A DNA stretch of 64,000 bases from an uncultured Gemmatimonadota bacterium (GCA_964654825.1 CAZZKG010000006.1:3478-67477); one strand, 5' to 3'. Shown: positions 21,758 through 56,048, numbered from the stretch's first letter. Notes: generated by a model not told the origin, from the letters alone. Translations and numbers: made by a program.

Positions 21758-21869
21758 ATCCGGCATTATCTTTTATTGACTATCAATAAAAATCAGTCCG
21801 AACGAACTGCGCGCTCGAGGAGCCTTGTGAGCATGTCAGTACTCCTTTCAACCGCTTCCAGCACCTCGC

Positions 21870-29551: not shown

Positions 29552-31504
29552 TCAGTCGAGATACCCGAGAGCTTTGAGCCGCTCCTTGATCTCATCATCC
29601 ACACGTGATGAAACGGCAACAGGGACCCTCCTCTCACCGGATTCATAGGTGTTGACGTAACGTACCGGGTGAGCCTGCATGAAACCGTCCTCGATCGCCT
29701 CGGTCAATGGCCTCCCGTCCATGTCCAGGGCGACAGGCATGCCGAACAGAGTTAGCACAGTCGGAGTAATATCGAAAAGCTCGGGATTGTCAAGTTGTAT
29801 ACCTCTTTTTATATTCTTCCCCGCCATGATGATGATACCTTCCTTCCGGTGTTTACCGGAGTATGTCGGATGGTACATATCACGGATGACACCGGGTTCA
29901 TCCTCATGCCAGACTCCGAAACCATGATCCGACAGAATAATGTAGGTGGCATCGAGGCCGTACACCTCGACATGTTTACCGACGACCTCGTCGAGGAAAG
30001 AATAGTATTTAAAGATAATATCACCGAACAGTTTCGCGTCTTCCTCTCTCACGCCCTCGAAAAGGGTCGGTTCCATATGCTTCCAGAAGAGGTGGCAGAC
30101 GAAATCCGGCCCGCTGAAGTATGTGGCGAACAACGGGGTGGGATGATCTTTCATCAGGTAGAGCCCGAGGGCGGCAATGAAATTGTCTCTCTTGAAGTGC
30201 CGTCTGAACTCATCGAAATTCTGGTTTATGTCGCTTGTATGTAAAATAGTCCTCAGACTGTCGATAGTGAGACCTTCCCACCTGTTCAGAAAAAGTTTCA
30301 CCGGCTTTTCATCCGTGAAATACTCATCTTTCGGATACTCCTCGAGCAGGTCCTCCGGGTAGAGCGCCTTTTCCATGTCAGCCCACCTGATCCTGCTCGA
30401 TACTACGTACCCGTTATCGACAGGCCGTACCGGCCACAGATTCCACCAGCCAAGAATCCCCACATCCACCCCGGCCCGACTCAGTATGTCCCAGTACCTC
30501 AGCGACTTTCCTACTGTACTCGTGGTGGGGATCGTCTCGAGTAAACCATCGAAAAAAGGTATTCGAAAAGGAAAATCCGATTTCATGAACGGTACCCGCA
30601 TGACGGAAAAGTCGAGTATCCCATGTTTTTTTTCTACCTTCCCGGTAGCAACGGATTCCCACAGCGCAGGGCTCCTCATTCCCATGCTTGCGCTGCTGGC
30701 GAAAGCCTGAGTCATGGAGACGTTGGACGCGAGGGGGCCATACGTACCATTATCCATCAGATACTTGATGTTCGGCAGTTCACCATCGGCAATCATCGAT
30801 TCCATGATGTCCAGTGTTGCACCATCCAGTCCTATAATCACCAGCCTGGTAGCTGTTTCCTCACGTGATGCCGTCGGGGCAATTGCCGCTCGTGAGCCAC
30901 GGTTTCTGAGACCGGACCCAACGTGTATGAGCACGGCAACAATAATCGACAGGAGTATAAAGAGGAAAAAGTTGCCTGTCGAACGCGCGAGACCTGCCCC
31001 CCGGAACAGCCGTTTTATACCGAGTGCAGTGTCCTTTAACATGAAACCCACTCCGACACCCACAACACAGAATGCGATGCAAACGGGGATGAACCATGGG
31101 CTGCTGAAGTCGAAGGGCCTGTCGATGAGCACCCACCCGGAGAGGAGGATGAGGAAAACTACCGGTACCGACAGGATGACGGTGAAAAGCGGTACCAGGC
31201 CGAACACCCTGCCTGCTTTCGAAATGAGTCTGTCGATACCCACGCCGGGCAGCCACAGGATAGTTGCCGCAAAAAGAAACATGATCACGGAAATGATCAG
31301 AAAATAGATCTGCAGGATCACAGTATCGTAAAGCAGGACAGGAATCCCGATGACGTACACCGTGAACAGGTACATGATGAGGGAGAACGGAATGCTGAAT
31401 CCCAGCCCGCAGTGAAGCGAACTCCGGAGGTACTTAAACAGCGATACCTTCTCTTCGTTCCGCGTCCTACCGGTCTTCCTGGATGAGCTTCCTGTAGACA
31501 TCAA
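29552..31504 (-). CDS. Polytopic membrane domain fused to alkaline-phosphatase-superfamily (PF01663-like phosphodiesterase/phosphotransferase) domain; C-terminal ...RLKALGYLD tail
   Basis: ~6 N-terminal TM helices, then LVIIGLDGATLDIMESMIADGELPN... (AP-superfamily core), DHGFG metal site. Last gene of the polysaccharide block. Confidence 0.55.
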   Translation of the reverse strand: MMSTGSSSRKTGRTRNEEKVSLFKYLRSSLHCGLGFSIPFSLIMYLFTVYVIGIPVLLYDTVILQIYFLIISVIMFLFAATILWLPGVGIDRLISKAGRVFGLVPLFTVILSVPVVFLILLSGWVLIDRPFDFSSPWFIPVCIAFCVVGVGVGFMLKDTALGIKRLFRGAGLARSTGNFFLFILLSIIVAVLIHVGSGLRNRGSRAAIAPTASREETATRLVIIGLDGATLDIMESMIADGELPNIKYLMDNGTYGPLASNVSMTQAFASSASMGMRSPALWESVATGKVEKKHGILDFSVMRVPFMKSDFPFRIPFFDGLLETIPTTSTVGKSLRYWDILSRAGVDVGILGWWNLWPVRPVDNGYVVSSRIRWADMEKALYPEDLLEEYPKDEYFTDEKPVKLFLNRWEGLTIDSLRTILHTSDINQNFDEFRRHFKRDNFIAALGLYLMKDHPTPLFATYFSGPDFVCHLFWKHMEPTLFEGVREEDAKLFGDIIFKYYSFLDEVVGKHVEVYGLDATYIILSDHGFGVWHEDEPGVIRDMYHPTYSGKHRKEGIIIMAGKNIKRGIQLDNPELFDITPTVLTLFGMPVALDMDGRPLTEAIEDGFMQAHPVRYVNTYESGERRVPVAVSSRVDDEIKERLKALGYLD

Positions 31505-32642
31505 TCACCTCCATCGCACTATTTCGCCAGGTGAATTTTTTCGCTCTTTCGAGTCCTCTCGCCGTCAAGTTACTTTTGAGATCTTCACTCGTCAGAAGCG
31601 TCTCCATCGAATGTTTCATCCCCTCTACATCCGACGGATCAAAATAGAGTGCGGCATCACCCAGCACCTCGGGGAGACTCCCGCCGGTCGAGCTTGCAAC
31701 CACCGTCCCGCAGGCCATGGCTTCCATGGGAGGGAGACCGAACCCCTCGTACCAGGATGGAAAGACGAAAAGCTCCGCACCACTGTAAAGAGCGGGCATA
31801 TCCTCTTCCTTCGTATACCCAGTAAACCTCACCCGGTTGCGAAGGTCGAGTTCGTCGATGGTTCTGGTGACTTCCTCAGAACCCCAACCCAGGTGACCCG
31901 AGATGACGAGACAGACCTCCTCCCTGAGGCCTGCGAAAGCTCTGAGAAGAGTGACCAGATTCTTCCGGGGTTCAACCGTGCCGACAAAGAGGATGTAAGG
32001 TTTCCCGTCACTCACCGTCTGCCGGATCGCAGCGGCACCCACCGGCCGGTAGTGAGATGAAATACCATTATAGACAACACTGATATCATCTTCCCGCACT
32101 CCGAGATATTCGATCATGTCTTCCTTCGTCTTCAGGGAAACAGATATGAAATGATCCACTCTGTGAATTTTTTTGAGTAATTCCTGCATTTCCCACCTGA
32201 TCCTCTTCGTGCTCATCTTTTCAAAGATAAGCGGGACCAGGTCGTGAAAGGTCATTACGGATACGATTCCGCGCAATCGGTACGGCCTTTCGAGGTGTGT
32301 GGGATAATGCAGTATGTCGATGTCACTCCGCCTGATCGTTCTTCCTTTGAGATAATCTTTCAGCATGAGTCTCATGGCGGAAGGGGGATAAAACCTTCCA
32401 TCCCCACCGCCGCGGGTTCCTTCATGTGTTTTCCCTCTGACGAGCGGAAGATCACGGGGTGAAGGAAACCGCACCAGATGGAATCTCCCGAACTCTCCGG
32501 TCTCTTTGTACTTGTCCTGGAAGAGAAGGACTTCGATTCCTTCCAGGTCGGCAAGTTCCCGGATGGTGTGGTAACACACCTTGTCGATACCGGGGAGACC
32601 CGGTCCGATGATGAATTTATCCAGGGTGAATCCTATCTTCAT
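31467..32642 (-). CDS. Glycosyltransferase family 4
   Basis: C-terminal GT4 signature FVFPSWYEGFGLPPMEAMACGTVV. Confidence 0.8.
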   Translation of the reverse strand: MKIGFTLDKFIIGPGLPGIDKVCYHTIRELADLEGIEVLLFQDKYKETGEFGRFHLVRFPSPRDLPLVRGKTHEGTRGGGDGRFYPPSAMRLMLKDYLKGRTIRRSDIDILHYPTHLERPYRLRGIVSVMTFHDLVPLIFEKMSTKRIRWEMQELLKKIHRVDHFISVSLKTKEDMIEYLGVREDDISVVYNGISSHYRPVGAAAIRQTVSDGKPYILFVGTVEPRKNLVTLLRAFAGLREEVCLVISGHLGWGSEEVTRTIDELDLRNRVRFTGYTKEEDMPALYSGAELFVFPSWYEGFGLPPMEAMACGTVVASSTGGSLPEVLGDAALYFDPSDVEGMKHSMETLLTSEDLKSNLTARGLERAKKFTWRNSAMEVIDVYRKLIQEDR

Positions 32643-32648
32643 GATATC

Positions 32649-33851
32649 TCAGTATTCCCCGGACCCTCTTATGTGGATACCTTTTCCCCGAGCGTAGTCT
32701 TCGATGACCTTAACGGTTTTCTCTACACGGGCATCCCAGGTGTTCTGTCGGGCGACATCCACCCGTGCCTTGACCCTCTCAACTCCTTCACCGAGAGCTT
32801 GTTCCAGCGCTTCGATAAAATTCTCTTTTCCATTGACCATGTAGATTACATCCTCGAGATCTTCGAGAGCCGGGATATGAACGGTTACAACGGTCTTTCC
32901 GCCCGCGAGATATTCGAATGTCTTGGTGGGGAAGGCATGTTTACTCCACTCCCCCTGCAGATACGGCATGTAACAGACATCCAATCCCTTGATGTATGAC
33001 GGGAGTGCATCGAGCGGTTTCTTGCCGAGAAAATGGATATTGTCCATTTCTTTCATGACTGTGGGGATCGGATCGTAGTTGGGTCCGATCAATACCTGTT
33101 GCCAATCGGGATGTCTCCTCGAAATCTCAGTGAGCAGATCCCAGTCCATCCTGAGATTGTCGATATTCCCGGTGAATCCGATGCGGGGTCGCCGGATTGC
33201 TTCGAGCTCGGCAGGAACCGGGAGCTCCGGGCTGAGGGCCTGCTCGAAGAGTTCGGTATCGACACCTGGTGCAAAACGATAGGTACGGGGATGCAGTTTG
33301 CTCCGTACGTCGTACAACGATCTCGTTGTTGTAAATACGAGGTCCGCATTCTCGATGAATTCCCTCTCGAGACGCATGAGACCCTTTTTCCGCCGTTCGG
33401 GATTGACAAATGCCGCCACTTCGTCGTGGCAGCCGTAGATGACAAGCTTGCTCCCCAGGTCGGGAGAGGGACACACCAGAAATGGCGCATAGACCCAGAG
33501 AATCGGATCTTCGAAACCGATTTCCCTGAATACTTTCTTCAATGCCACCTCGACGCGGTGTCTGTTCAGCCTGTCGTTCGATTCGAGGATTCCGTACTGG
33601 AGGAGTAACGGCGGCGGGGTGTAGAGATACATTCCCGTGTCCATTTTCTGTACACCCGATCTCCAGTTCTTCCACTGTTTCTTGAGGTTGGGATGTAATG
33701 ACGGATGGATCAGGAACGTCGCAAGGGCGATGGGTGGGTCCACGAAAAGGACCCTGTTGTCCCGGCTCAATTTGTTCATCATGTGATGCATGAGGAGAGG
33801 GACAAAATCATACGTCACCCAGGAAAGACAGACGATGTTCTCGCCTTTCAT
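32649..33851 (-). CDS. Glycosyltransferase family 4-like
   Basis: GT-B C-terminal half PTKTFEYLAGGKTVV and HFLGKKPLDALPSYIKGLDVCYMPY. Confidence 0.65.
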   Translation of the reverse strand: MKGENIVCLSWVTYDFVPLLMHHMMNKLSRDNRVLFVDPPIALATFLIHPSLHPNLKKQWKNWRSGVQKMDTGMYLYTPPPLLLQYGILESNDRLNRHRVEVALKKVFREIGFEDPILWVYAPFLVCPSPDLGSKLVIYGCHDEVAAFVNPERRKKGLMRLEREFIENADLVFTTTRSLYDVRSKLHPRTYRFAPGVDTELFEQALSPELPVPAELEAIRRPRIGFTGNIDNLRMDWDLLTEISRRHPDWQQVLIGPNYDPIPTVMKEMDNIHFLGKKPLDALPSYIKGLDVCYMPYLQGEWSKHAFPTKTFEYLAGGKTVVTVHIPALEDLEDVIYMVNGKENFIEALEQALGEGVERVKARVDVARQNTWDARVEKTVKVIEDYARGKGIHIRGSGEY

Positions 33852-35062
33852 CTCCGGCTCCTTTCGTACAGCGAATCGACGTTCCGGATCAGGTCGTCCA
33901 TAAGTAAACCCCAGTCGAATTTTGAAGCTCCCCTGATCCCGTTCCCGGCCATTTTCTCGACTTCATCACGGTGGGAGAAGAGATCCACTACAGTATCTAC
34001 GTAGGTTTCCGTTTCAAAGGGTATGGCAACGCCACTGTCGAACTTTTTCAGGACGATCTCGGTCTCGGTCCCCCTGGTGCCGATGACAGCCAGTCCCCCG
34101 GCCATGTATTCGATCACCTTGAGCGGAAAGGCATAGATTCTCAATTGATTGGGAGGAAACAGAGCATAGCCGATATCCGCCCTCCTGATGTAATACGGCA
34201 GCTCGATGTAAGGAACGGCCTCCATCTTCGTGACCCACTCATCGATGCCGAGCGATTTGATCTGTCCGCTCAGGCTTCCGTCCGGATCGGGGCCGATCAG
34301 GATCATGTGCGCGTCCGGAATCTTCTCCCTGATCCTTCTGAATCCTTCGAGAGCAATCGAGATCCCGGAGTACCTCTCATCGAAGTTTCCGAAATAGATA
34401 ATCGTGGGAGGGTGCACTTCCTTCACCCCCCCGGCGCTGAACGCGTGATAATTGACTCCGTTGTGAATCACCACAGGTCGTATCCCGAGGTCCCTCTCCC
34501 GTTTCGCCGCGAGCAGATTCCCCGTACAGATGACGAGGTCAGCCTGCTGAATGAAGAAGTTCTCTACGGCCATGGTCACGGAAACTCTCAGGGGTCTCAC
34601 CTGAAATGCGGGAACGTAATCGATATCTCCGTAAACGATGCCGCCCACCCGCCCGAAGGCTTTGAGCACGACCGCGACGAGCATCTCCCAGGGCCCTTCC
34701 GCATAACAGAGAGAAAATGGCCTGCGGATGTTCGTGAGAAAGAGGAGGAGCATGGAGATCGCAACAAGTATTTCCGAAACGGGTCCCAGAAGACGAAACG
34801 GCCTCGCGAAGGACTGGTTGAGAATAGGATTCAGGTCATACACCTTCACAGCACCGTGACGATAGACATTGACACCAGGTATAAGTTTCCTCAGTCTTTC
34901 GGACGATCTCACCGAGACATTTCTGTGTTTGGAGATTACCACCACGCCGCCGTACCTTTCAGCAAGTGCCCTCGCGATGTGCTGACACCGCTGGTTCTTC
35001 TCGACGGTGTAATCGAGAGTGGTGATGACCAGGACATCCTCGCATCTGTTCGAACCTTTCAT
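33848..35062 (-). CDS. Glycosyltransferase family 4-like
   Basis: FPLKVIEYMAGGLAVIGT EX7E-type region. 4-nt overlaps with both neighbours. Confidence 0.65.
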   Translation of the reverse strand: MKGSNRCEDVLVITTLDYTVEKNQRCQHIARALAERYGGVVVISKHRNVSVRSSERLRKLIPGVNVYRHGAVKVYDLNPILNQSFARPFRLLGPVSEILVAISMLLLFLTNIRRPFSLCYAEGPWEMLVAVVLKAFGRVGGIVYGDIDYVPAFQVRPLRVSVTMAVENFFIQQADLVICTGNLLAAKRERDLGIRPVVIHNGVNYHAFSAGGVKEVHPPTIIYFGNFDERYSGISIALEGFRRIREKIPDAHMILIGPDPDGSLSGQIKSLGIDEWVTKMEAVPYIELPYYIRRADIGYALFPPNQLRIYAFPLKVIEYMAGGLAVIGTRGTETEIVLKKFDSGVAIPFETETYVDTVVDLFSHRDEVEKMAGNGIRGASKFDWGLLMDDLIRNVDSLYERSRR

Positions 35063-36324
35063 CTGGAAAATGTCCTTTCGATGTGCACGAGCATCTTCTC
35101 GACCATACCTTCCCAGGAATTATCTTCGGCCTCTCTGATCCTTTTCTCGACTTTCTCCTCGGTGTCTTCCGAGAGAGCGCGCTCAGCGGCTTCTATGAAC
35201 TCATCCGGAGTACCCGCTATCTCTACTATCCCTGAAAAGAGATCGATCACATCTGGGATCGGGGCCGAAATGACGGGTTTGCCGGAAGCGAAATATTCTA
35301 GAAGCTTCGTCGGGTTGATGTTGCGCGTGTTGTCATTCAATACAAAAGGGATCAGACAAATGTCGAACGCTTTCAGGTACCCGGGTAGTTCATGGTACTC
35401 TCTTCTCCCGATCATGTGGATGTTCGGTGCTTTCTTCTCGATGTGCGATGGCCCGATCAGGAGTATGTTCCAATCGGGTTTTCTCGCCGCGACGGTTTCG
35501 AGCATGTCGATGTCCGTCCTGGTGTCGACGAGACCAAAATAGCCGAGGACCGGTTTCCCGAGCCCGGCAGCGTCGGACGGTATGACGGTGGTTTCTTCCC
35601 TGGATCTCCCGAAGTGACTGCTCTCGACACCACACTGGATGAAGTGCATGTTTGGATTGTGCCTTTTTTTCCTCTTCCAGAGCTGGAGTGTGCCGGTGAA
35701 CACGAGGTCGCATTTTCGGATGAGGTTGATTTCCCTCTCCTCGGTGTCGGCCGGGAACCAGGAGAACGAGCTGTACTCATCCTGAATATCGTAGAGGACA
35801 AGATCTTCATCCAGATGCCCCACAAGCGATTCATAGGTTGGATAGTAAAACCAGAGAACCCGTCTGTTCCCCACCATCCCGTTCAGGGAAGTAAACCACT
35901 TCAGGTAATTTCTCAAAATCAGTCTGTTGAGAATCCTCACCAGAGACAATTTACTATCCCCCCATAGCATGAGGGGTCTGAAGGTGAGCAGATTGTCGTT
36001 GTGTTTATGAGCAGTGAGTGAGCCGGTTGTAGTACCTTCTTTCGCAGCACTGAGAGTCGGAATGGGACAGCAGTAGAGGACTTTGCTCTTCTCCGAAATG
36101 CGGGACTGGGTGTGGTGGTTTCTCTGCCAGAGATAATCCCAGGGTACCTGGGAGATGACGACAAACTCGAGGTCCGTGCTGCGCCTGGAAGTCACAGCCT
36201 TATGTCCCGAGGCACAAACAATCCTTCGAAACAGGGTGATCACAGAATCGATCAGCACCCACGCCGACAGGGACAGGGTTCTCAGCATGACTTCGGTTGA
36301 CGATAATTCTTTCTGCATCACCAA
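35059..36324 (-). CDS. Glycosyltransferase family 4-like
   Basis: NPTKLLEYFASGKPVIS, LGYFGLVDTRTDIDML GT-B features. Confidence 0.65.
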   Translation of the reverse strand: MVMQKELSSTEVMLRTLSLSAWVLIDSVITLFRRIVCASGHKAVTSRRSTDLEFVVISQVPWDYLWQRNHHTQSRISEKSKVLYCCPIPTLSAAKEGTTTGSLTAHKHNDNLLTFRPLMLWGDSKLSLVRILNRLILRNYLKWFTSLNGMVGNRRVLWFYYPTYESLVGHLDEDLVLYDIQDEYSSFSWFPADTEEREINLIRKCDLVFTGTLQLWKRKKRHNPNMHFIQCGVESSHFGRSREETTVIPSDAAGLGKPVLGYFGLVDTRTDIDMLETVAARKPDWNILLIGPSHIEKKAPNIHMIGRREYHELPGYLKAFDICLIPFVLNDNTRNINPTKLLEYFASGKPVISAPIPDVIDLFSGIVEIAGTPDEFIEAAERALSEDTEEKVEKRIREAEDNSWEGMVEKMLVHIERTFSR

Positions 36325-36346
36325 TTCTACTCAGGGGTGGATTATA

Positions 36347-37693
36347 TCAGATTCCGGTAACATATGTGCTTTCCTCCCCACCATCGGTGAGCCTGTTCAC
36401 CAGCTCCACTCCCTGCATCAAGGAGTGATCCATATTCCCCACCTCGTATTTCCAGCCACCGAATCTTCCCCTGGAGAAAATACTCTTTCCTTCGAAGAAA
36501 GAATGAATCGTACGCATCGCATCATCGCGTCCGAGTGAAGGAACCGGCAGGAGGGAGGGAACATCGATAAGATATGTGGAAACGATGTCTTTTCTGTCTC
36601 CATCCCGGATAATGCCGGAGTTGACAAGACCGGTCACGGTCTCTTCGGTGATTGTGTCACGATTCACCTGCTTAAACGGTGAGTGGGAAATTTCACAGAG
36701 AAGCGAATAATAATCCCCTTTCGGTGTCATGTTCGGGGAGTAATTCGAGAGGTAGGTAACCCGGTAGAATGGAGAGTTGCCTTCGGGGAAATACATCCAG
36801 TTCTTGTCGCTCGGACATGGCTGAGCCAACCCCAGACCGATGATGAAGCCGCCCGCCTTCCTGAGATTGTTTGCCGCTTCTTTTACTTCATCAGGAACAT
36901 CATCCGTGATGCCGACGAGCTCATCAGCGGGAATCGTTGTAATCAACGAACCGAACTCCGTCTCGCTCCCATTCTCGAAAGTGACCTTCCTGTCACGGAG
37001 AGAAATCTTCACGGCTCTGTGTGACAGTTTGATGCGCTCCCCGAGAACAGGTGCAAAAGCACCGAACAGGCCCCCTGTCCCGCCGTGGAGCGGAAACAGA
37101 AACAGATTGTTTGGACCCCATGAGCTGTCATCCTGACCGTAGACGATGTTTTTCATCACATGTTTGATGTCGACGACGCTCACTCTTTCCCCTATCCAGT
37201 TATAATCCATCATGGTTAAAGGATGCGACCACACTTTCTGGTTATACGGTATGAGGAAATACTTTGCGATCCCGTCGCCGAAGACCATCCTGATCCAATC
37301 TTCGAAGTTGTTGGGTTTCCCGCCTTTCTCTCTCGCCTCGATCAGGCCAAGGATGCAATCGAGGACTACCTCTCTCGGCAGGAAGTGAAAATTGTTCTGA
37401 AAAGGATATCTCACGAACTTCCCCATCAGGCGTACCCAGCTTTCCCGCTCGTGGGAAACGACATCTTCAGCCAGGAGTTTCTTGATGATTTCATCGTAGT
37501 ATGGATAGTGAGAAAACATGATGTGGCCGCCGATATCCCAGGTGAAACCCTTGTCGTCCACGAAACTCGCCGACAGACCACCCACATAGGAGTTCATCTC
37601 GTACATATCCCAGTCTTCGTGGCCGATTTCGTTAAGCCGATAACCGGCACCCAGCCCTGTCGGTCCGGCTCCAAGAACAACAATTCTCTTCAT
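36347..37693 (-). CDS. FAD-dependent oxidoreductase of the amine-oxidase superfamily, UDP-galactopyranose-mutase-like
   Basis: Rossmann motif MKRIVVLGAGPTGLGAGYRL, C-terminal GRFGGWKYEVGNMDHSLMQG. Position within the glycan locus suggests a sugar-nucleotide mutase role (inference). Confidence 0.5.
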   Translation of the reverse strand: MKRIVVLGAGPTGLGAGYRLNEIGHEDWDMYEMNSYVGGLSASFVDDKGFTWDIGGHIMFSHYPYYDEIIKKLLAEDVVSHERESWVRLMGKFVRYPFQNNFHFLPREVVLDCILGLIEAREKGGKPNNFEDWIRMVFGDGIAKYFLIPYNQKVWSHPLTMMDYNWIGERVSVVDIKHVMKNIVYGQDDSSWGPNNLFLFPLHGGTGGLFGAFAPVLGERIKLSHRAVKISLRDRKVTFENGSETEFGSLITTIPADELVGITDDVPDEVKEAANNLRKAGGFIIGLGLAQPCPSDKNWMYFPEGNSPFYRVTYLSNYSPNMTPKGDYYSLLCEISHSPFKQVNRDTITEETVTGLVNSGIIRDGDRKDIVSTYLIDVPSLLPVPSLGRDDAMRTIHSFFEGKSIFSRGRFGGWKYEVGNMDHSLMQGVELVNRLTDGGEESTYVTGI

Positions 37694-37791
37694 CTGATTT
37701 CCTTCCACCTGCCTTTTTGTGTATGTTCGACTGATCTCACACTGGTATCGGTATGTCTATCATCCATTCCCATCCTGCAGCAGATCCGGGA

Positions 37792-39975: not shown

Positions 39976-40023
39976 CCGTGAGCACAGGAGAGACTAGAGG
40001 GCACCATTGCCCCGATTACCCCA

Positions 40024-44290: not shown

Positions 44291-44969
44291 GTAAAACGAA
44301 ATCGGAGGGTGTCATGATCCCCTCATCACAGGAGATGAATGACTCATACCAGCCGCGCCCACCCCCCGCCATTGCGCTCCCGTAAGCCATAGCCGATTGC
44401 GAAAGCTGAAGTTCTCCCCCGCAGCCGAGTGCATGGAGCGCCAGGAATTTTGATCGGACGGCCTGATCGACACAAAGCTGATATTCGGGGAGCACAAGCA
44501 TTCTTGACTGGTAATAAAAACTCCCGAGGTGAAGCTTCTTTTCCAATTCATCGATCTTCGGCTTCTCATCCGCGGTGAGCGGAAACGGATAGAACAGGAT
44601 CGCTTCGTGGGGGACTGCCGGGCTTCCATCCTGTTCCCAGCAGCTCAACCGGGGAGTAACAATTACGGTGCCCAGCTTACGGATCGCCGTCTTTTCGCGA
44701 TCAGTGTAAGGTTTCTCTACCACCGCGAGACACTCCCCATCCACCGCTGCGTGCCCCGCCAGAAGTCCCCCACAGCCTGATATTACCTCCCGCACGTCCC
44801 TTCCGTATACTATCAGGATGGTCCCGTGACCTGGCTTGAGAGGAGTGGGGATCACCACGAGGTTCAGGGGTCGGGGTAAGATGTTTCCGGTGATCCTGCC
44901 AATACCGGCAATCGCCCTTTTGATAAATGCTTTTGCCATGAATCTACACCAATCTCGAGATAGATTCAT
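44268..44969 (-). CDS. Hypothetical soluble protein in polysaccharide locus
   Basis: 233-aa ORF, no recognised domain. Overlaps neighbours by ~25 nt on each side. Confidence 0.3.
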   Translation of the reverse strand: MNLSRDWCRFMAKAFIKRAIAGIGRITGNILPRPLNLVVIPTPLKPGHGTILIVYGRDVREVISGCGGLLAGHAAVDGECLAVVEKPYTDREKTAIRKLGTVIVTPRLSCWEQDGSPAVPHEAILFYPFPLTADEKPKIDELEKKLHLGSFYYQSRMLVLPEYQLCVDQAVRSKFLALHALGCGGELQLSQSAMAYGSAMAGGGRGWYESFISCDEGIMTPSDFVLRGEGNAR

Positions 44970-46164
44970 CGATTCGTAAGCCGGCAGTCTTCGTGTAGAC
45001 TTCGCCGAGCTGCTGCATGTGAATCTCCGATGTAAATGTACGCCGCACTACTTCTCTGCCGTTTTTTCCCATCCGGTCTGCTCCCGCTCCGTCCTCGAGG
45101 ATCCGGACAAGTGCCCGGGCGAGTGCGGGTGAATCACCGTAAGGTACGAGTAAACCGGTGGTCTCTTCCTGCACCAGCTCGGGTATCCCGCCGAGCCTGG
45201 ATGCGACGACAGGTCTCCCGGCCGCCATCGCCTCGAGGATTACGAGAGGGCAATTTTCCTTGACGACTGATGGCAGAACCACGACCCTCGAGGCCCCGAA
45301 AAGAGGACGGAGTCTCTCCTCGTCGAGCTGACCGTGAAACTTCACTGCTCCGCCCACGCCAAGCTCACTGGCGGATCGTTGAAGATCGTTCATCTCAGGA
45401 CCGACGCCTACGATGTCGAGAATCGCGCTGGGCACTCCATCGAGGACTTCACGAAAAGAACGGAGGAGGTGATCAACCCCCTTACTCGGATACAGGGAAC
45501 CTACGAAAAGGATACTCCGTGAGGCACCGGGAAGTATACCTCCTTCGAAATAATGAGTATGTACAAAGTTGGGGACAAGTACCGGTTCGATCCCGAAGTG
45601 AGTGACGTTCTCGGCGAGTGCCCTGCTCGGCGTAATGAGAGTCCAGTCCTCCCGTGAGAAGAGCCTCCTGACGAGCTTGCGGGACGGGACCTGGGCGATG
45701 TACTTACTGATCGGGATACATCCTTCACTGACGCAGACGGTCCCGAAGGACCAGGGGCAGACGAGCCCGTTCTTTCTCACACCTCTCTCATTCGGGCACA
45801 CGATCCGTATGTCGTGTGCGGTCTGAACCAGAGGAGGACCTTTGGAACAGGCCAGATATACTGTGTGCGAGTAGAGACAGTTCCCCTGAACATGAATGAG
45901 ATCGGGTCTCTCTTTGTCTATCACCTTCCGCAGCATCCGAAAGAGCTTCGGATTGAACAGATGCTGTTTCATCCTCCCGGTGAGAGCTCCATTACCGTGG
46001 AAGGGGAAGATTGTGACTTTGCCCTCTTCAGACGAGTCTCCCTGATTGAACGTGAAAAGAGAGACCTCAACTCCCCTTTCCCTGAGCATCCTCGTGAGCT
46101 CCATCCTGTATCGGTTCGCTCCACCGCGGACGTCCGCGAAATCGTGGAACATCAGCACTTTCAT
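44944..46164 (-). CDS. Glycosyltransferase family 4
   Basis: GGANRY N-terminal motif, VVLPSVVKENCPLVILEAMAAGRPVVASRLGGIPE C-terminal GT4 signature. Confidence 0.8.
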   Translation of the reverse strand: MKVLMFHDFADVRGGANRYRMELTRMLRERGVEVSLFTFNQGDSSEEGKVTIFPFHGNGALTGRMKQHLFNPKLFRMLRKVIDKERPDLIHVQGNCLYSHTVYLACSKGPPLVQTAHDIRIVCPNERGVRKNGLVCPWSFGTVCVSEGCIPISKYIAQVPSRKLVRRLFSREDWTLITPSRALAENVTHFGIEPVLVPNFVHTHYFEGGILPGASRSILFVGSLYPSKGVDHLLRSFREVLDGVPSAILDIVGVGPEMNDLQRSASELGVGGAVKFHGQLDEERLRPLFGASRVVVLPSVVKENCPLVILEAMAAGRPVVASRLGGIPELVQEETTGLLVPYGDSPALARALVRILEDGAGADRMGKNGREVVRRTFTSEIHMQQLGEVYTKTAGLRIDESISRLV

Positions 46165-47624
46165 ACCGACCTCCGTCCAAAAACGTAGGAGGTGATCTTT
46201 AACAACGGCTCCTTGATGAACCGGTTTATCTCATCCCGGTCGTAAACCCCGAGCACCTTCAACATGTAACAGTAGGGTACGAGGGCAAGGAGTATTCTGA
46301 GGGGCAGAAACAAGCCGTCGAGGAGGATGAGCACAACCAGCATAGTGGAAAGTGCCAGGAGCGGCCGGGGTAACATACCGAGGTAATCGATTTTGTGGCC
46401 GAGAACTTTCCTCACGAAGTAAATCCGTATAAAAAGATCGATAACGGTCGAGTTGAGCGAAACCCATGCGGCACCGATATGCTGATACTTTGGAATGAAA
46501 ATGAAGTTGAGGACAATGTTGATGCACATGTTTACGGCGACGATGGGGGCAAAACTCGACAGGAGATTCGACTGGAGGATGATAACTCTCATCGGTGTGG
46601 TGAAGAAGAGCAGCGCGCACGCCCAGCTGAGTATGAACAGTACCCGGGCGGATTCCTCGTACTGTTGTCCGAAGATGAACAGCGTGATCTCGCGGTGATA
46701 GAGGATGAGGACGCTGAAAACCGGCAGCGCCATGGTCAGGAAGAACTTCTGCAGTTTCTGATAAATGAGGACCAGTCTTTCCTTCGCGTGTACATAGAGA
46801 GCGGAAATAGTCGGCTGCATCGCGACGTTTATCAGAACACCGGCCATGGCGATGTGTTCGAGAATCTTGTACGGAGCGGCATAAATGCCCACTGACTCTT
46901 CACCGACCATCTTCGAAAGCATGAAGAAATCAACGCGGATATGGATCATCATGATGAGACCGAGTACCGCGAAAAACATGGCATCCTTGAATATTTTCCT
47001 GCAGAAGACAGTGTCGATCTCGGGTTTGAAAGAGGGAACCACCCGTTTAACGAACCACATGAGGATGATCAGTTTCACCCCACTCCAGAAGCCGAAGGCG
47101 AGCAGGATGGTTTTAATACCGAATCCGAGCCAGATCAGAACGATGCCCGAGGCTGCTGGGAGAAAGCCGACGGCCACCTCGATTGCGGAGGTTATGTCCA
47201 TGCGCTCGTGGGCCTTCAGCATCGAGATGAAGGGACCGGACAGTGTAGAGAAAATCAGGAAGGGTATTCCGGCATAGAAGAGCCCTACGATCTCACCCCG
47301 GTAGCCGACTGCATGGATGAGAAGAATCATGAGGACGGAAACGATTATTGATGTGATTATCTTGATACCGAGGATGTTCCTGATGTACTTGCTGGAACGA
47401 GAGTAATCCCTCGCCACGTCCCTCACCGTGAGCGTGTCGAGCCCGCAGTCACTGAAGATGCCGAAGAAAGCGAGAAACAGAAAGACGAGGGACCATTGAC
47501 CGAACCCTTTCGTCCCGAAGTAACGAGCTGCAATAGCAACGAAGGTGATGCTGATGACCTTTGTGAGGATCTGGGCGATTTGGAGGGAGACGACATTTCT
47601 CAGTATGGTAAATCTTTTGTCCAT
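46161..47624 (-). CDS. wzx: Polysaccharide flippase (Wzx, MOP superfamily)
   Basis: 12-14 TM helices. N-terminus KVISITFVAIAARYFGTKGFGQWSL... typical of PF01943/PF13440 flippases. Confidence 0.7.
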   Translation of the reverse strand: MDKRFTILRNVVSLQIAQILTKVISITFVAIAARYFGTKGFGQWSLVFLFLAFFGIFSDCGLDTLTVRDVARDYSRSSKYIRNILGIKIITSIIVSVLMILLIHAVGYRGEIVGLFYAGIPFLIFSTLSGPFISMLKAHERMDITSAIEVAVGFLPAASGIVLIWLGFGIKTILLAFGFWSGVKLIILMWFVKRVVPSFKPEIDTVFCRKIFKDAMFFAVLGLIMMIHIRVDFFMLSKMVGEESVGIYAAPYKILEHIAMAGVLINVAMQPTISALYVHAKERLVLIYQKLQKFFLTMALPVFSVLILYHREITLFIFGQQYEESARVLFILSWACALLFFTTPMRVIILQSNLLSSFAPIVAVNMCINIVLNFIFIPKYQHIGAAWVSLNSTVIDLFIRIYFVRKVLGHKIDYLGMLPRPLLALSTMLVVLILLDGLFLPLRILLALVPYCYMLKVLGVYDRDEINRFIKEPLLKITSYVFGRRSV

Positions 47625-47643
47625 TCCACTCTGGGGGGAAGAT

Positions 47644-49320
47644 TCAGCTCAGATAACCGAGACCCTGGAGGGTTTTCCGAATTTCTTCCTCCTCGTCGGT
47701 GGTATAGCCATCAACAGTTTTCTCGGGTACGGAGCCTGGTTCCAGTTTCACGAACCTGAGTTCATTCGACTTCTTGTAATCTTCGGTAAAACACTCGAGC
47801 AAGACCTTTCCATCCATCTCCTCGGGGACGGGCATACCGAACATGTGAATGATCGTCGGGGCCAGGTCTTCGATGCGGGCATCCTGCACAACATGAGCTT
47901 GTCTGACCCCCTCCCCCCGCATGAAAAGTATTCCATTCTCACGATGCAACGCAGGTGTAAACTCGAACGGGTCTCTATAGATCTGATCGACGAAGAAATC
48001 GGCTCTCGGAAGGATGCTCAGGTCCCTGGTGAGGAACTGGATATCGGGAGCGAGCTCCATGTAAGGTCCCCTGTAGAGTTCTTCCCTCCGGTAGGCTTTC
48101 TCTACAACCCGTTCCCCGTCTGGATCAAGAATCTCTTCGAGGCCGCTGATGATTTCGTCTCTCAGTTGCTCGTACTCGGCCCCGGGTCGGATGATGCCTT
48201 CCGGTTCCCTCCCCTGCAGATTGATGATGATGATTTCTTCTCCCCCGCTGAAGCTCGAGAAAGCCTTCGTACGTGACCAGTCGATCATCGACATATACAG
48301 TCTGTCCAGAGTGACACCGAGAAGCCGGGGTTTCAGCAATCTCGCAGCCCTCCTGCCGAAGGCCCTGAGAAGTCTATCGAGACTCTGGTAGCTGCTGTCA
48401 CCATCGAGCTGATCTCTGCCGACTCCCAGCAGTTTCGCCAGGAGTTTCGAACCGGATTTCAATTTCAGGTAACCGCGTTCCAGCAGCCATTTGTTGATGT
48501 AGAACCTGCCCTCGATCGGACCGCACCCGTGATCAGACATGACGATGACGGACACATCTTCCCCGGCGGCAGAGATGAGTTTCCCGAGGTAATCATCGAG
48601 GACCGCGTAGCACATTTCGATGATGCCGCCGTACTTTTTATTCTCCACCGGATGCTTGTCTCTGTACTCAGGTACCTTTATCCGCCAGGCCCTGTGCTGT
48701 ACGAGGTCGACGGTCCTGAAGACAGTCATGAAGAAATCCCAGTCGAATTTCCTCATGAGGTACAGATTTGCATCCAGTATCTTCCTGGTAGTGTAGAGCA
48801 TGTGCATGAAAGCTTTTTTCTCATCACCACCCCAGAATATTTTTTCTGAATCACTGTCGAGCGGGTAGTCTCCGAGAGCACAGAGGAGATCGAGATGCAG
48901 ATCGGCCGGGTGGGTGAAGATATGGTCGGTACTCGGAGTGAGCAATCCACTTACCAGATAACCATTGACCTCTTCCGGAGGGTAGGTCAGGGGAACGTTT
49001 ACCACCCCCACTTTTTTCCCTCTGTCACTCAGTATCTTCCAGACACTCCTCGCTTTTATCGAATTATAGGTGATAAAAGGACGGTAGTACGTACCATCTT
49101 TTCTCTCACGAAAGTAGAACACGCCGTGTCCACCGGGATTCATACCGGTGATGAAAGATGACCACGCGACGGAACTGTTGGGAGGTATCGTGGAGAGTAG
49201 CGTGCCGGAGGCGCCTTCCTGACAAATTTTCGAGAGGTTCGGGAGTTTTCCTGCTTCCATCATGGGAGATGCGATGTCGAGTGTTGCTCCATCGAATCCG
49301 ACGACCAGCACCTTTTTCAT
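47644..49320 (-). CDS. Alkaline phosphatase family protein (PF01663-type), soluble; C-terminal ...LQGLGYLS tail
   Basis: MKKVLVVGFDGATLDIASPMMEAGKLPNL...TIPPNSSVAWSSFITGMNPGGHGV, DHGCGP metal site. Start set at MKKVL (GGGGAG ~11 nt upstream) rather than the track start. Confidence 0.65.
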   Translation of the reverse strand: MKKVLVVGFDGATLDIASPMMEAGKLPNLSKICQEGASGTLLSTIPPNSSVAWSSFITGMNPGGHGVFYFRERKDGTYYRPFITYNSIKARSVWKILSDRGKKVGVVNVPLTYPPEEVNGYLVSGLLTPSTDHIFTHPADLHLDLLCALGDYPLDSDSEKIFWGGDEKKAFMHMLYTTRKILDANLYLMRKFDWDFFMTVFRTVDLVQHRAWRIKVPEYRDKHPVENKKYGGIIEMCYAVLDDYLGKLISAAGEDVSVIVMSDHGCGPIEGRFYINKWLLERGYLKLKSGSKLLAKLLGVGRDQLDGDSSYQSLDRLLRAFGRRAARLLKPRLLGVTLDRLYMSMIDWSRTKAFSSFSGGEEIIIINLQGREPEGIIRPGAEYEQLRDEIISGLEEILDPDGERVVEKAYRREELYRGPYMELAPDIQFLTRDLSILPRADFFVDQIYRDPFEFTPALHRENGILFMRGEGVRQAHVVQDARIEDLAPTIIHMFGMPVPEEMDGKVLLECFTEDYKKSNELRFVKLEPGSVPEKTVDGYTTDEEEEIRKTLQGLGYLS

Positions 49321-49404
49321 TCTCAACTGCTCCCCTGATAAAAATTTTCCCCCTCCCTCCGATGAAGGCAGAGGGGGAAGTGATACGAGAACTCTTTCCC
49401 GCAC

Positions 49405-50205
49405 TTACTCGAGGAACACATCCTCAACTCTCGGCTCGATGGCTATCCCGCGCTCTAGCTGAAGAACGGGTCGGACGACTATCTGCAAGGTCTTGAAGAA
49501 ATCCCGTATATCACCCACGAAGCTCCTTGGAACGTACAGGACATCCCCCGCCTCCAGATTGATGTTCTCTCCACCGGAACCCTTCACGAGAAAGTCCTGG
49601 AGATCGAGCCTCTCGAGATAGGGATCATCAATATCTCCCCGTATAAGAATAACGGAAGACTTGTTGCCGTCATTTGTAAAACCGCCGGCTTTCGCGATCG
49701 CTTCGACCGCCGATGTCGCGCTGTTCAGCACAAAGACACCGGGCTTCTCGACCTCCCCGAGGACGAAAATCTTCTGGCTCCTGAGTGAAATAACCTCAAC
49801 TCCGACCTGAGGATTGACGTAGTACCGAGCAAGACCATCCTGAACTGTCCGTCTCAATTCTTTGATGTCTACCCCTCCTGCTCTGATATATCCGAGGAAG
49901 GGGTAATAGAACTCACCCGAGACATCGAGCTTCACCTTCTTGTTGAGGTCTTCATGACCCCATACTCGGATCGCAAGCTCATCGCCGGTTCCGAGGATGA
50001 ACTCGGTAATGTGTGGGGGTGCCTCATCCAGTATCCGACCTTCCGGTTGATCACTGCCCGGGAGAGAACCGGCACTATTTGTTCCACCACTGCATGAAAC
50101 AGACATCAGACCTACACAGAAAAGGAGCAAAAGTTCTCTGAATATTGAATTGAAGGTGTTGAATAGAGGCGGAATCGAAACGTTAAAATTCCTGAAAATT
50201 TTCAT
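49405..50205 (-). CDS. wza: Polysaccharide export outer-membrane protein Wza (Poly_export + SLBB)
   Basis: Lipoprotein-like signal LLLLFCVGLMSVSCSG, GDELAIRVWGHEDL...YYPFLGYIRAGG (Poly_export), GDVLYVP SLBB. Confidence 0.8.
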   Translation of the reverse strand: MKIFRNFNVSIPPLFNTFNSIFRELLLLFCVGLMSVSCSGGTNSAGSLPGSDQPEGRILDEAPPHITEFILGTGDELAIRVWGHEDLNKKVKLDVSGEFYYPFLGYIRAGGVDIKELRRTVQDGLARYYVNPQVGVEVISLRSQKIFVLGEVEKPGVFVLNSATSAVEAIAKAGGFTNDGNKSSVILIRGDIDDPYLERLDLQDFLVKGSGGENINLEAGDVLYVPRSFVGDIRDFFKTLQIVVRPVLQLERGIAIEPRVEDVFLE

Positions 50206-50514
50206 AAATACACCCCCAGAGGCCAAGAAAACAGTTACAATATTACCCACAATCTGAATGTGTTTAGTCGAAGATACGGTTCACTATTTACTTGTGCATA
50301 ACCCGTACCACATTAAAGAAAATTTACTCTTTATTTAGACCCTGTCAAGTCTCATACCATCTAGGGGTTCCCTTGAATTCACCAATCGATTGGATAGTTA
50401 AAAGACGAAAATTTGATTCACCGTTCGCAGTGGTAATAAGAAAGACTATTCCCGTCACGATGGATCAGTCAAAGCGTACATTCCTTCACAATTTTTCCGG
50501 CGGGATCGACATTT

Positions 50515-50591
50515 ATAAATAGGGACAGTCACCATTTATTTAAAAATAACATAACGGTGACAAAAAAATAAATGGTGACTGTCCCTATTTA
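50515..50591. repeat. REP doublet: perfect 25-bp inverted repeat (ATAAATAGGGACAGTCACCATTTAT / ATAAATGGTGACTGTCCCTATTTAT) with 27-bp spacer, between the priming transferase and wza
   Basis: Arms at 50515-50539 and 50567-50591 are exact reverse complements, with the same core as the RAYT-flanking REPs. Confidence 0.85.
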
Positions 50592-50734
50592 TCGTAGACA
50601 ATGACAGCGGGTAGTCGAGGTTCCTGGCCAGGCGAGACGACGCAAGGAGTATCTTTAGTTACTCCGAGGAGTAGCAACGCAGCCAGGGGACTTGAGAGTC
50701 GCCTGAATTGGTGATGAATTTCTGGGACGGGACA

Positions 50735-51610
50735 CTAGATATTGATACAGTGGAGCATCCACCTCACGGTGGACAGGAGGAGTTTGACATCCAGCCAGAG
50801 AGACCAGTTTCTGATATACTCCAGGTCGAAATTCAGATTCTCGTGAATCAGTTTTTCTCTCGAAGCCTGGAGCTGCCAGATACCGGTGACACCGGGTTTC
50901 ATCTGCAGGCGGATTTCGTGAAGCTTGTTGTAGCCGATAACGATATACGGCATTTCCGGGCGAGGTCCTACGAGACTCATGTCACCTCTGAGCACGTTGA
51001 TGAGCTGGGGGAGTTCATCGAGTGATACCTTCCGGAGAAATCTGCCAAATCCGGTGAGTCGATCATCATCATGTGTCTTCGGGGAGAAATCATATTTGGG
51101 ACTGTCGATCTTCATCGTCCTGAATTTGAAAATTTTGAACGGCTTCCCTTTCAGATCATGAACGCGTCTGTCACCGGTCCTTCTGTTGAAAATGAAGGTT
51201 GTCTTGTTGCCGATACTTTCGATCTCTCTCCGGTCAAGCCTTCTCCTGTTCTGACCGATACGCTGCTGGGTAAAAAAGATCGGTCCCCTCGAATCGAGCT
51301 TGATCAGGAGTGCAACGAGGATAAAGAGTGGTGAGGTGATTATGACGAGACCTGTCGCGAAGGTGATGTCCATAGCACGCTTGATGAACCTCCGCCATGT
51401 CAGTGTAAGCGCCTGGATATAGGAACCGAATACAGCATACTTGCCTGATGATTCGATCGGTTTGTCGTATCCCCTCTCGACGAGACTCCGCTGATAGAGC
51501 TGGAGTATATCCCTGAAGCCTTCACCGGGACCAATCCACTTGAAGCGTTCTTTCGTCTCTATTGCCTGCATGTAATATTCACTGTCTTTTGTCTGCAGTC
51601 TTTTCTTCAT
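50735..51610 (-). CDS. Polyprenyl-phosphate sugar phosphotransferase (bacterial sugar transferase, WbaP/PglC-like initiating enzyme)
   Basis: RGPIFFTQQRIG...GKPFKIFKFRTM...LDELPQLINVLRGDMSLVGPRPE (PF02397), with an unusual ~40-aa insertion before the KFRTM motif. Confidence 0.8.
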   Translation of the reverse strand: MKKRLQTKDSEYYMQAIETKERFKWIGPGEGFRDILQLYQRSLVERGYDKPIESSGKYAVFGSYIQALTLTWRRFIKRAMDITFATGLVIITSPLFILVALLIKLDSRGPIFFTQQRIGQNRRRLDRREIESIGNKTTFIFNRRTGDRRVHDLKGKPFKIFKFRTMKIDSPKYDFSPKTHDDDRLTGFGRFLRKVSLDELPQLINVLRGDMSLVGPRPEMPYIVIGYNKLHEIRLQMKPGVTGIWQLQASREKLIHENLNFDLEYIRNWSLWLDVKLLLSTVRWMLHCINI

Positions 51611-56029: not shown

Positions 56030-56048
56030 TCTGGAAACAAAGAGATCG

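Follow-up and report, generated by a model that had tools for sequence, protein, structure and literature searches.

A core operon of Candidatus Glassbacteria with four alkaline-phosphatase-superfamily genes: a possible route to a decorated envelope glycan

Why would a polysaccharide locus carry four enzymes of the alkaline phosphatase (AP) superfamily? The question is raised by a 64,000-nucleotide stretch of DNA from an uncultured Gemmatimonadota bacterium (GCA_964654825.1, CAZZKG010000006.1:3478-67477), which we analysed at its full length and call the window. Sixteen co-directional genes on the minus strand fill positions 29552-51610 in our list of open reading frames (ORFs), and both end points given for the locus in a preliminary description coincide exactly with ORF boundaries. 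The series is unbroken from 51610 down to 29552: junctions range from -4 to ~100 nt, most being 4-nt overlaps or gaps of less than 100 nt, and a single wide gap of 484 nt separates the first gene (50735-51610) from the second (49405-50250). Annotation with Pfam and NCBIfam recovered every domain that the description had named. The locus is real and uncharacterised. We regard it as an evenly balanced call that this is a core operon of the Glassbacteria (Gemmatimonadota), which builds an envelope glycan along a Wzx-type pathway and decorates it with AP enzymes. The sequences show the gene content, the intact catalytic residues, the folds, a predicted topology, the synteny and the repeated occurrence of the AP families in glycan loci; we infer the substrates, the donor, whether groups are transferred or hydrolysed, and whether they are phosphate or sulfate.

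Pfam matches and transmembrane (TM) segments agree that the AP-superfamily proteins are, as first described, two sulfatase-fold membrane enzymes and two PF01663 enzymes, one of them membrane-fused. The soluble PF01663 enzyme is encoded by a 586-aa ORF (47644-49404, minus strand like all operon genes; E 1.8e-31). Translation most likely begins at M29 (position 49320), as in the orthologs, which would yield 558 aa, and the protein contains neither a signal peptide nor a TM segment. The 650-aa protein (29552-31504) joins a 5-TM anchor to a PF01663 domain of the nucleotide pyrophosphatase/phosphodiesterase (NPP) type. Of the two proteins that match Pfam Sulfatase, the 614-aa protein (40024-41868; E 2.1e-38) has a 5-TM anchor and a Thr nucleophile in the sequence TAPSH, and the 727-aa protein (37792-39975; E 1.6e-47) has a ~7-TM anchor and a Thr nucleophile in TVPTH.

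Are these enzymes intact? In an alignment of 43 PF01663 homologs, seven columns were invariant or nearly so. The seven NPP bimetallo positions are kept in the 650-aa protein (D227, S278, D467, H471, D526, H527 and H552) and in the 586-aa protein (D38, S77, D233, H237, D291, H292 and H487), and the first Asp and Ser/Thr columns of the profile align with D54 and T90 of Xac NPP (2gsn). An alignment of 39 homologs of the Sulfatase pair likewise showed invariant or nearly invariant columns at D264, T304, H308, H432 and D523-H524 of the 727-aa protein and at D190, T230, H234, H367 and D453-H454 of the 614-aa protein. The preliminary description had allowed that the enzymes might prove catalytically dead, but all four keep a nucleophile and metal ligands. 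Judged by these residues, all four are apparently catalytically competent.

Structure prediction with AlphaFold2 gave confident models in which N-terminal helical bundles, at residues 22-202 and 25-242, precede AP folds. The 650-aa protein shows five long helices and then an NPP core (pLDDT 89.7, pTM 0.90); the model of the 727-aa protein has a pLDDT of 83.5. The three anchored proteins have 5, ~7 and 5 TM segments by hydropathy and N-termini rich in Lys and Arg. Because of these basic N-termini and TM counts, the positive-inside rule would place the three anchored catalytic domains in the periplasm. This predicted architecture fits decoration of a flipped glycan. The 586-aa PF01663 enzyme is presumed to be cytoplasmic.

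The two Sulfatase proteins had been called LtaS/EptA-like. The likeness holds for their architecture and for a Thr nucleophile with Asp/Asp/His ligands but not for clade membership, as their nearest relatives in NCBIfam, the PDB sequence search and Foldseek are arylsulfatase, choline sulfatase and phosphonate monoester hydrolase (PMH). EptA_B_N (PF08019) gave no Pfam match in either protein, and the NCBIfam models for EptA, LtaS and CptA scored 17-27 bits against cutoffs of 404-1200, which is noise level. The top 60 PDB sequence matches and the top 50 Foldseek matches were all sulfatases or PMH, with LtaS and EptA absent. The best solved matches of the pair are 4uph, 4upl, 2vqr and the choline sulfatase 6fny (sequence E 1e-31), and the 727-aa model retrieved PMH, arylsulfatase and choline sulfatase in Foldseek at E ~1e-22 and TM-scores to target of 0.6-0.7 (4uph, E 9e-23, 0.69). 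The formylglycine motif C-x-P-x-R reads T-x-P-x-H in both proteins, with the Thr aligned to the Cys of 4upl. T/S-x-P-x-H was present in 113 of 120 homologs (TxPxH in 81, SxPxH in 32, CxPxR in none); half of the homologs are soluble, at ~465 aa, and half are TM-fused. The absence of the formylglycine motif rules out true sulfatase activity of this kind for the pair, and the operon contains no formylglycine-generating enzyme. By sequence, the pair forms a distinct, arylsulfatase/PMH-like clade that has Thr as its nucleophile and to which no function has been assigned.

The two PF01663 proteins differ in their spread. Full-length orthologs of the 650-aa protein (hereafter TM-NPP) were found only in the Glassbacteria lineage (n = 10). 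The 586-aa protein, in which an insert of ~190 residues separates the DH pair from the final His, belongs to a soluble family with more than 4040 proteins at E <= 1e-10 among 8000 candidates scored, and with at least 557 loci in GTDB species representatives. These come from Planctomycetota, Chloroflexota, Desulfobacterota, Acidobacteriota, Verrucomicrobiota, Asgard archaea and others. The sole name of the family is 'predicted AlkP superfamily phosphohydrolase/phosphomutase', and among solved structures the phosphonoacetate hydrolase PhnA comes closest, yet a profile reaches it at no better than E 2e-8.

A common C-terminal motif, L(K/R/Q)xLGY(L/I/V)x, closes all four AP proteins. It reads LKALGYLD in TM-NPP (29552-29572), LKALGYVD in the 727-aa protein (37792-37812), LRSLGYIH in the 614-aa protein (40024-40044) and LQGLGYLS in the 586-aa protein (47644-47664), and no other six-frame ORF of 100 aa or more in the window carries it. 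Across loci L010-L088, the LGY motif is present on 102 of 136 AP-family ORFs. It is absent from all 69 ORFs that belong to other window families and present on 4 of the 1446 ORFs left unassigned. It is common to the PF01663 and T/S-x-P-x-H clades, in soluble, lipoprotein and TM-fused forms, and occurs in archaeal members too; solved sulfatases in the PDB alignments lack the LGY C-terminal region. The models place the motif after the last helix, with moderate confidence. A role in docking to a partner that these proteins have in common is speculation.

What pathway surrounds the AP genes? The PGT, the Wza-type exporter, the Wzx and the LmbE deacetylase reported for the locus were each confirmed by Pfam and NCBIfam. 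The first gene (50735-51610) encodes a priming enzyme, a small monotopic polyprenyl-phosphate glycosyl-1-phosphate transferase (PGT) of 291 aa with one hydrophobic segment at residues 85-113 (Bac_transf E 2e-63; EPS_sugtrans E 7.5e-78, under the curated cutoff). The second (49405-50250) encodes a short, Wza-like outer-membrane polysaccharide export (OPX) lipoprotein with one SLBB domain (Poly_export and SLBB_2; EpsE- and pepcterm_export-like NCBIfam matches under cutoffs) and a lipobox-like sequence ending in GLMSVSC. The flippase is a 487-aa protein of the Wzx/MOP family with multiple TM segments (46161-47624; Polysacc_synt E 5.7e-22, Polysacc_synt_3).

A trio of genes follows the flippase. 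The first encodes a retaining GT4 glycosyltransferase (44944-46164; Glyco_transf_4 and Glycos_transf_1) whose best named relatives are N-acetylglucosamine (GlcNAc) transferases of the BshA/MshA type (NCBIfam BshA 1.4e-30, MshA 1.2e-26, under cutoffs). The third encodes a PIG-L/LmbE-family de-N-acetylase (43508-44290; PIG-L E 1.5e-27) whose best NCBIfam match is BshB1 (9.5e-25) and whose translation contains PHYDDD and HVDH motifs. Between them lies a gene for a lineage-restricted protein of unknown fold (44268-44969; 223-233 aa) with no Pfam or NCBIfam match. This 233-aa protein is real but rare, with 8 representatives among 1.8 billion proteins; it is fused N-terminally to a PIG-L domain in the protein P0302 and in a Glassbacteria relative (L090, 14376-15818). 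The idea, formed by eye, that it is a degenerate PIG-L paralog was unsupported (BLASTP E 0.85), and the fusions take its place as evidence. The protein is probably tied functionally to PIG-L, as a partner subunit that this lineage alone adds to the deacetylase. Combined with the BshA/MshA-like GT4 encoded upstream, the fusions point to a module for GlcNAc transfer and de-N-acetylation, from which we infer free glucosamine (GlcN) in the glycan.

The flavoenzyme at 36347-37708 (Amino_oxidase/NAD_binding_8) had rightly been called UGM-like. It is a full-length homolog of eukaryote-type UDP-galactopyranose mutase (UGM), matching the Trypanosoma cruzi structure 4dsg at E 1.4e-109 over residues 8-449, including the FAD-binding N-terminus, and 3uka at 1.5e-105. 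The window enzyme resembles trypanosomatid and fungal UGMs. Since UGM supplies UDP-galactofuranose (UDP-Galf), galactofuranose is expected in the product. Five GT4 enzymes had been reported, which is roughly right: two are canonical GT4 enzymes, the one upstream of the deacetylase and another at 31467-32642 (Glycos_transf_1 4.7e-34, Glyco_transf_4), but the other three are TuaH-like GT-B glycosyltransferases. These lie at 35059-36324 (Glyco_trans_1_4 and Glyco_trans_1_2; TuaH 2.6e-29, under the cutoff), 33848-35062 (TuaH 1.3e-14) and 32649-33851 (TuaH 2.1e-28). The reported GT39 enzyme (41865-43763; PMT_2 3.1e-15, PMT 3.6e-13) is indeed a GT-C fold glycosyltransferase of the PMT_2/ArnT/PMT type but is better named PMT_2-type GT-C; its likely start is M69 at 43559, and it has ~10 TM segments and a HIDE (Asp-Glu) motif in the first loop.

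No sizeable ORF of the 64-kb window matched Wzy_C or Wzz/GNVR, in agreement with the reported lack of a Wzy polymerase and a Wzc co-polymerase, and the Wzz-like protein of the relative L001 has no homolog there. Outside the operon, the sole further multi-TM ORF of the window is a second PMT_2 paralog, an ArnT-like GT-C glycosyltransferase at 11598-13235 (plus strand). It is 25% identical to that of the operon, lies 16 kb downstream of the end of the locus and is surrounded by genes for FG-GAP and MAM-domain secreted proteins.

Is this gene order peculiar to one genome? The closest homologs of the window proteins, at 53-74% identity, carry the name Candidatus Glassbacteria, which published papers place as a class within the Gemmatimonadota. 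Four relatives (L004, L005, L006 and L007) have the gene order of the window, PMT_2-Sulf-Sulf-UGM-GT-GT-GT-GT4-TM-NPP (Sulf, Sulfatase-type gene; GT, glycosyltransferase). Even the flanks are shared. In the window, the locus is bordered by housekeeping genes: dnaK, htrA, tRNA-Leu, tig, clpP, clpX and lon on one side, transcribed divergently from the operon, and radC, spoT and uvrB downstream. In L005, TM-NPP is followed by radC-spoT-uvrB, and in L004 by radC; L089 and L090 read lon-clpX-clpP-tig-htrA-dnaK, then PGT-OPX-AP-Wzx-GT4-(233 aa)-PIG-L-PMT_2-Sulf. This synteny argues for a vertically inherited core envelope-glycan operon at a fixed chromosomal site and not for a hypervariable O-antigen or capsule island. 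The AP copy number varies, as L090 has one Sulfatase-type gene and therefore three AP genes. The module is rearranged in L001, where Wzz-like, arylsulfotransferase-like and lipoprotein-type sulfatase-like genes lie near the TM-NPP ortholog. Nutrient-scavenging phosphatases unrelated to the glycan were also considered; the 4-nt overlaps that tie the AP genes to adjacent genes, and the conserved synteny, rule them out.

Having four AP enzymes in one Wzx-type locus had been judged unusual. Taking homologs of the soluble enzyme in GTDB as centres, we counted AP-superfamily genes within 10 kb on either side in the 46 loci that were 15 kb or longer. At least two were present in 24 loci, at least three in 11 and at least four in 4. 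Thus, four AP genes do fall in the upper tail, but they are not unique: they mark the upper end of a recurrent and apparently unstudied architecture, not a singular oddity. Wzx-type loci with two to five of these genes occur in Planctomycetota, Acidobacteriota, Desulfobacterota and others, and loci from other phyla illustrate the architecture. An Abyssobacteria locus (L008) reads OPX ... Wzx-PIG-L-WecG-rSAM-AP-6 GT4-Sulf-Sulf, and a Planctomycetota locus (L009) reads Wzx-AP-PIG-L-TM-Sulf, its Sulf carrying a TLPGH motif and an LGY-containing tail. BMS3Abin06 (L014) has PGT-OPX ... Wzx-AP-propeller-AP-GT9-AP-GNAT-GT4-GT4-UGM-TuaH-like GT, in which the UGM (18130-19479) is 51% identical to that of the window and the gene after it encodes a 41%-identical homolog of the GT-B enzyme at 32649-33851. 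Brocadia (L015) repeats this pattern with PIG-L added; UGM orthologs in these two multi-AP loci are 51-55% identical (21273-21650 in L015). A deltaproteobacterial locus (L074) has five AP paralogs around Wzx. In a Thermodesulfobacteriota locus (L019), the order is PGT-OPX-Wzc-rSAM-MurJ-WecG-AP-GNAT-Wzy_C-AP-AP-AP-GT2-GT4; the missing Wzy and Wzc are a trait of the Glassbacteria locus and not of the AP-array class.

More broadly, genes for the soluble AP enzyme, PIG-L, Wzx, GT4, UGM and TM-sulfatase-like proteins are found together in loci of Abyssobacteria, Planctomycetota, Brocadia, BMS3Abin06, Acidobacteriota and Desulfobacterota. When the 121 immediate neighbours of the soluble family on the same strand were tallied by Pfam domain, GT4 came first (13), followed by LPG_synthase_TM (12), GT2 (11), Wzx (6), GHMP kinase (5), APS kinase (4) and Wzy_C (4). 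Neighbours of the T-x-P-x-H family in metagenome contigs were heterogeneous (GT4 4, TPR 4 and Wzx 2, of 69).

From these data we propose the following pathway. The small PGT would prime polyprenyl phosphate, and the five cytoplasmic GT-B enzymes would lengthen the chain, using UDP-Galf from the operon's own mutase. One GlcNAc would probably be converted to GlcN by the GT4, 233-aa protein and PIG-L trio. The soluble, apparently cytoplasmic PF01663 enzyme may work on a lipid-linked or nucleotide-activated intermediate. Wzx would then flip the glycan unit, and in the periplasm the PMT_2 GT-C enzyme would add a sugar from a polyprenyl-phosphate donor. The three inner-membrane-anchored AP enzymes (two of arylsulfatase fold with Thr, one of NPP fold with Ser) are predicted to install or edit anionic esters through a covalent Ser/Thr intermediate, and the short OPX protein would deliver the finished glycan to the outer membrane. 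The substituents added in the periplasm are most likely, as the most economical guess, phosphodiester-linked head groups drawn from membrane lipids. We prefer this, by analogy, because lipids alone can serve there as activated donors, NPP sites perform phosphodiester chemistry and the known anchored AP enzymes act in this way. Such transfer would mirror the logic of EptA, OpgB, GacH and the ethanolamine-phosphate transferases of the glycosylphosphatidylinositol (GPI) pathway.

How close are the known systems? EptA/EptC/MCR, LtaS/LtaP, OpgB, GacH and PbgA share with the window enzymes an N-terminal polytopic anchor followed by an extracytoplasmic AP-fold domain, the Thr/Ser nucleophile, the D/E-T-D-H metal ligands and an envelope-glycan gene setting. 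The window enzymes differ in belonging to other clades (arylsulfatase/PMH-like with T-x-P-x-H, or NPP-like), in lacking EptA_B_N and in their LGY C-terminus. Formylglycine S1 sulfatases and PMH have the same sulfatase alpha/beta fold and are the best sequence and fold matches of the Sulfatase pair, but in the pair Cys/Ser-x-Pro-x-Arg is replaced by Thr-x-Pro-x-His and the domain is fused to 5-7 TM segments. Xac NPP, ENPP1-7 and PhnA share the seven bimetallo positions and the NPP core fold with the PF01663 proteins, at an identity of only 12-18%. One of the latter differs by its 5-TM fusion and the other, which is soluble, by the insert noted above, and both lie in a glycan operon.

At the level of the locus, capsule, extracellular polysaccharide and O-antigen loci of the Wzx/Wzy type with class-3 (short) OPX proteins share the PGT, Wzx, GT-B enzymes and an OPX protein with Poly_export and SLBB domains. 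The window locus differs by having no Wzy and no polysaccharide co-polymerase (PCP)/Wzc in 64 kb, by its syntenic place between housekeeping genes and by its four AP genes. The eukaryotic GPI pathway (PIG-A, PIG-L, GT-C mannosyltransferases and PIG-N/O/G) has a similar order of steps: GlcNAc transfer by a GT4 enzyme, de-N-acetylation, flipping, GT-C action and head-group addition by membrane PF01663-type enzymes. The operon differs from it in priming polyprenyl phosphate by a PGT instead of using phosphatidylinositol, in having an OPX exporter, in an AP anchor that is N-terminal where that of the GPI enzymes is C-terminal, and in having no PigN (PF04987) or transamidase match. The GPI likeness is a resemblance of logic and gene co-occurrence only, not membership.

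Several points weigh against decoration with lipid-derived head groups. In the PDB sequence search and in Foldseek, the Sulfatase domains are nearer to hydrolases (arylsulfatase and PMH) than to any known transferase. The 586-aa enzyme cannot use phospholipid donors of the outer leaflet because it is a soluble protein of cytoplasmic type. The operon has no gene for a CDP-alcohol donor and none for a GT2 polyprenyl-phosphate sugar synthase. No Wzy or Wzc is encoded in the window, so that the product may be a polymer or a single oligosaccharide. Literature searches found no published work on either AP clade and no demonstrated activity. Finally, a link to genes for synthesis of 3'-phosphoadenosine 5'-phosphosulfate (PAPS) points to sulfate over phosphate, at least for the soluble family.

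This last point bears on the earlier suggestion of a heavily phospho-modified glycan. The decoration-type architecture with intact enzymes stands, but phosphate itself is deduced, and sulfate is a live alternative because the soluble family repeatedly adjoins genes for APS kinase and ATP sulfurylase. The soluble PF01663 enzyme, and perhaps the T-x-P-x-H enzymes, would then be non-canonical sulfotransferases or editors of sulfate esters that form a Ser/Thr-sulfo intermediate and draw on PAPS in the cytoplasm; this is the main rival reading, which we consider unlikely. In the census of 121 neighbours, 4 were APS_kinase and 2 ATP-sulfurylase, where ~0.04 would be expected, by a rough estimate, for a one-per-genome gene. 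The adjacency occurs in three unrelated lineages, Blastocatellia (L025 and L035), Ardenticatenaceae (L037) and Udaeobacter (L041), as tandem soluble-AP arrays beside APS kinase and/or ATP sulfurylase (L025, 211-20327; L035; L037, 6026-10604; L041, 4767-12896). L025 reads APS kinase-AP-AP-AP-YfhO-AP-GT2-LPG_synthase_TM-PMT_2-AP-GT4-Wzx, and its 21 kb contain no canonical sulfotransferase domain. The Glassbacteria relative L001 has its arylsulfotransferase-like gene adjoining the TM-NPP ortholog, and a haloarchaeal soluble T/S-x-P-x-H member lies inside an agl-type glycosylation cluster.

The haloarchaeal protein Agl7 is putatively of the sulfatase family; NCBIfam holds no model for it. In Hfx. 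volcanii, a hexose linked to dolichol phosphate is sulfated only if Agl7 is present (PMC3892788). The haloarchaeal locus mentioned above (L091; Halorubrum sp. Ea1, GCA_002252965.1; 6407-13326) encodes a soluble T/S-x-P-x-H 'sulfatase' with an LGY C-terminus in an agl-like N-glycosylation cluster, among GT2, GT4, GT2 and GT8 genes and near a Wzx-type flippase.

Other findings speak against sulfation. There is no PAPS-synthesis gene in the window, nor beside 42 metagenome loci of the T-x-P-x-H family, so the sulfate link does not extend to that clade as a whole. The periplasm, the predicted site of three of the four domains, has no PAPS to offer, and the PF01663 proteins keep all seven NPP-type bimetallo ligands, a signature of phosphodiester chemistry. 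We know of no AP-superfamily sulfotransferase. As a doubtful conjecture, the soluble and T/S-x-P-x-H families, which share the LGY motif and are both met again and again, often as tandem arrays of paralogs, in glycan-assembly loci of many phyla of bacteria and archaea, may form an unrecognised class of group-transfer enzymes for glycan tailoring. In this class at least the cytoplasmic members would be PAPS-fed sulfotransferases of AP fold, and LGY would hold the enzymes to one assembly machine in the membrane.

Could the AP enzymes be processing hydrolases instead? They might cut phosphodiester or pyrophosphate links, for example in glycan release, in carrier recycling or in removal of a transient phospho- or sulfo-group needed for flipping. 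The nearest solved relatives (NPPs, PhnA, PMH, aryl and choline sulfatases) are all hydrolases, and nothing in the sequence reveals whether water or a sugar hydroxyl receives the group. However, with four paralogs in one operon and as many as five in related loci, tailoring enzymes that each serve one position seem the better fit, and the known fusions of multiple TM segments to AP domains (EptA, LtaS, OpgB and PbgA), a comparison made partly by structural superposition, are transferases or lipid-handling proteins. We therefore regard processing hydrolases as decidedly unlikely.

We consider it highly unlikely that the product is a single oligosaccharide, moved en bloc after flipping to a protein or lipid acceptor and decorated there by the AP enzymes, in parallel to the assembly of GPI anchors or protein O-glycans. 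Wzy and Wzc/PCP are missing from the window and also from the syntenic relatives L089 and L090, and PGT, Wzx, glycosyltransferases and GT-C are the set found in en bloc glycosylation systems; PIG-L, GT4, GT-C and a membrane PF01663 enzyme likewise mirror the GPI steps of PIG-A/L/M/N. However, the gene for the OPX export protein has kept its second position in the operon, L001 has its Wzz-like gene beside the TM-NPP ortholog, and the multi-AP locus L019 has both Wzc and Wzy_C. Moreover, PMT_2 enzymes are generally known to transfer single sugars, not oligosaccharides, and Pfam found no PigN domain or transamidase. To the proposal of a lipoteichoic acid-like polyglycerolphosphate polymer made by LtaS-type synthases in a diderm we give almost no credence: the multi-TM anchor, the extracytoplasmic Sulfatase domain and the Thr nucleophile are all that recall it, and we reject it because neither Sulfatase domain is of the LtaS/EptA clade (22.7 bits against a cutoff of 970 for the LtaS model; neither LtaS nor EptA in the top 50 Foldseek matches; aryl and choline sulfatases and PMH as sequence neighbours) and because the rest of the operon is a sugar-polymer locus.

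The main gain from this analysis is the link of two very large, uncharacterised AP-superfamily clades to glycan assembly across phyla. For the uncultured Glassbacteria, the operon predicts a conserved envelope polymer with galactofuranose and glucosamine. Charged substituents on surface glycans govern resistance to phages and antimicrobials, the binding of metals and the properties of biofilms, and the enzymes that add them are known for few model bacteria only. Both clades have thousands of members in bacteria and archaea, and identifying what they transfer would annotate many genes now called 'alkaline phosphatase family protein' or 'sulfatase'; it might also uncover a new route to phosphorylated or sulfated polysaccharides.

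The flanks of the operon and the rest of the window yielded several minor observations. A promoter-like site, TTGACA-17-TACAAT with a TG, lies at 51739-51767 (minus strand), ~130 nt upstream of the PGT start; with 11 of 12 matches it is suggestive only, and promoter and terminator consensus scans of the region gave no more sites than shuffled sequences. The G+C fraction falls to 0.45-0.46 in two 2-kb bins, 20001-22000 and 50001-52000, the second of which takes in the PGT gene, the gap between PGT and OPX, and some of the intergenic DNA that precedes PGT. A 502-aa ORF antisense to dnaK (52718-54226, minus strand) matches NAD-GH (PF10712) at E 3.5e-131. It is most likely no real gene, because it lies on the opposite strand of the strongly supported HSP70 gene (dnaK, 52385-54298, plus strand; E 9e-274). 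The tRNA-Leu gene (55944-56029, plus strand) overlaps the mechanical start of the trigger-factor ORF (55950-57338, plus strand); the true tig start must therefore lie downstream, and the Trigger_N match starts at residue 40. At 62852-63502 (minus strand), near the end of the window, we found an HTH_32/HTH_21 transposase-like fragment. A secreted lamin-tail-domain protein with a CHU_C type IX secretion signal is encoded at 5052-6878 (minus strand), consistent with a diderm of the FCB group.

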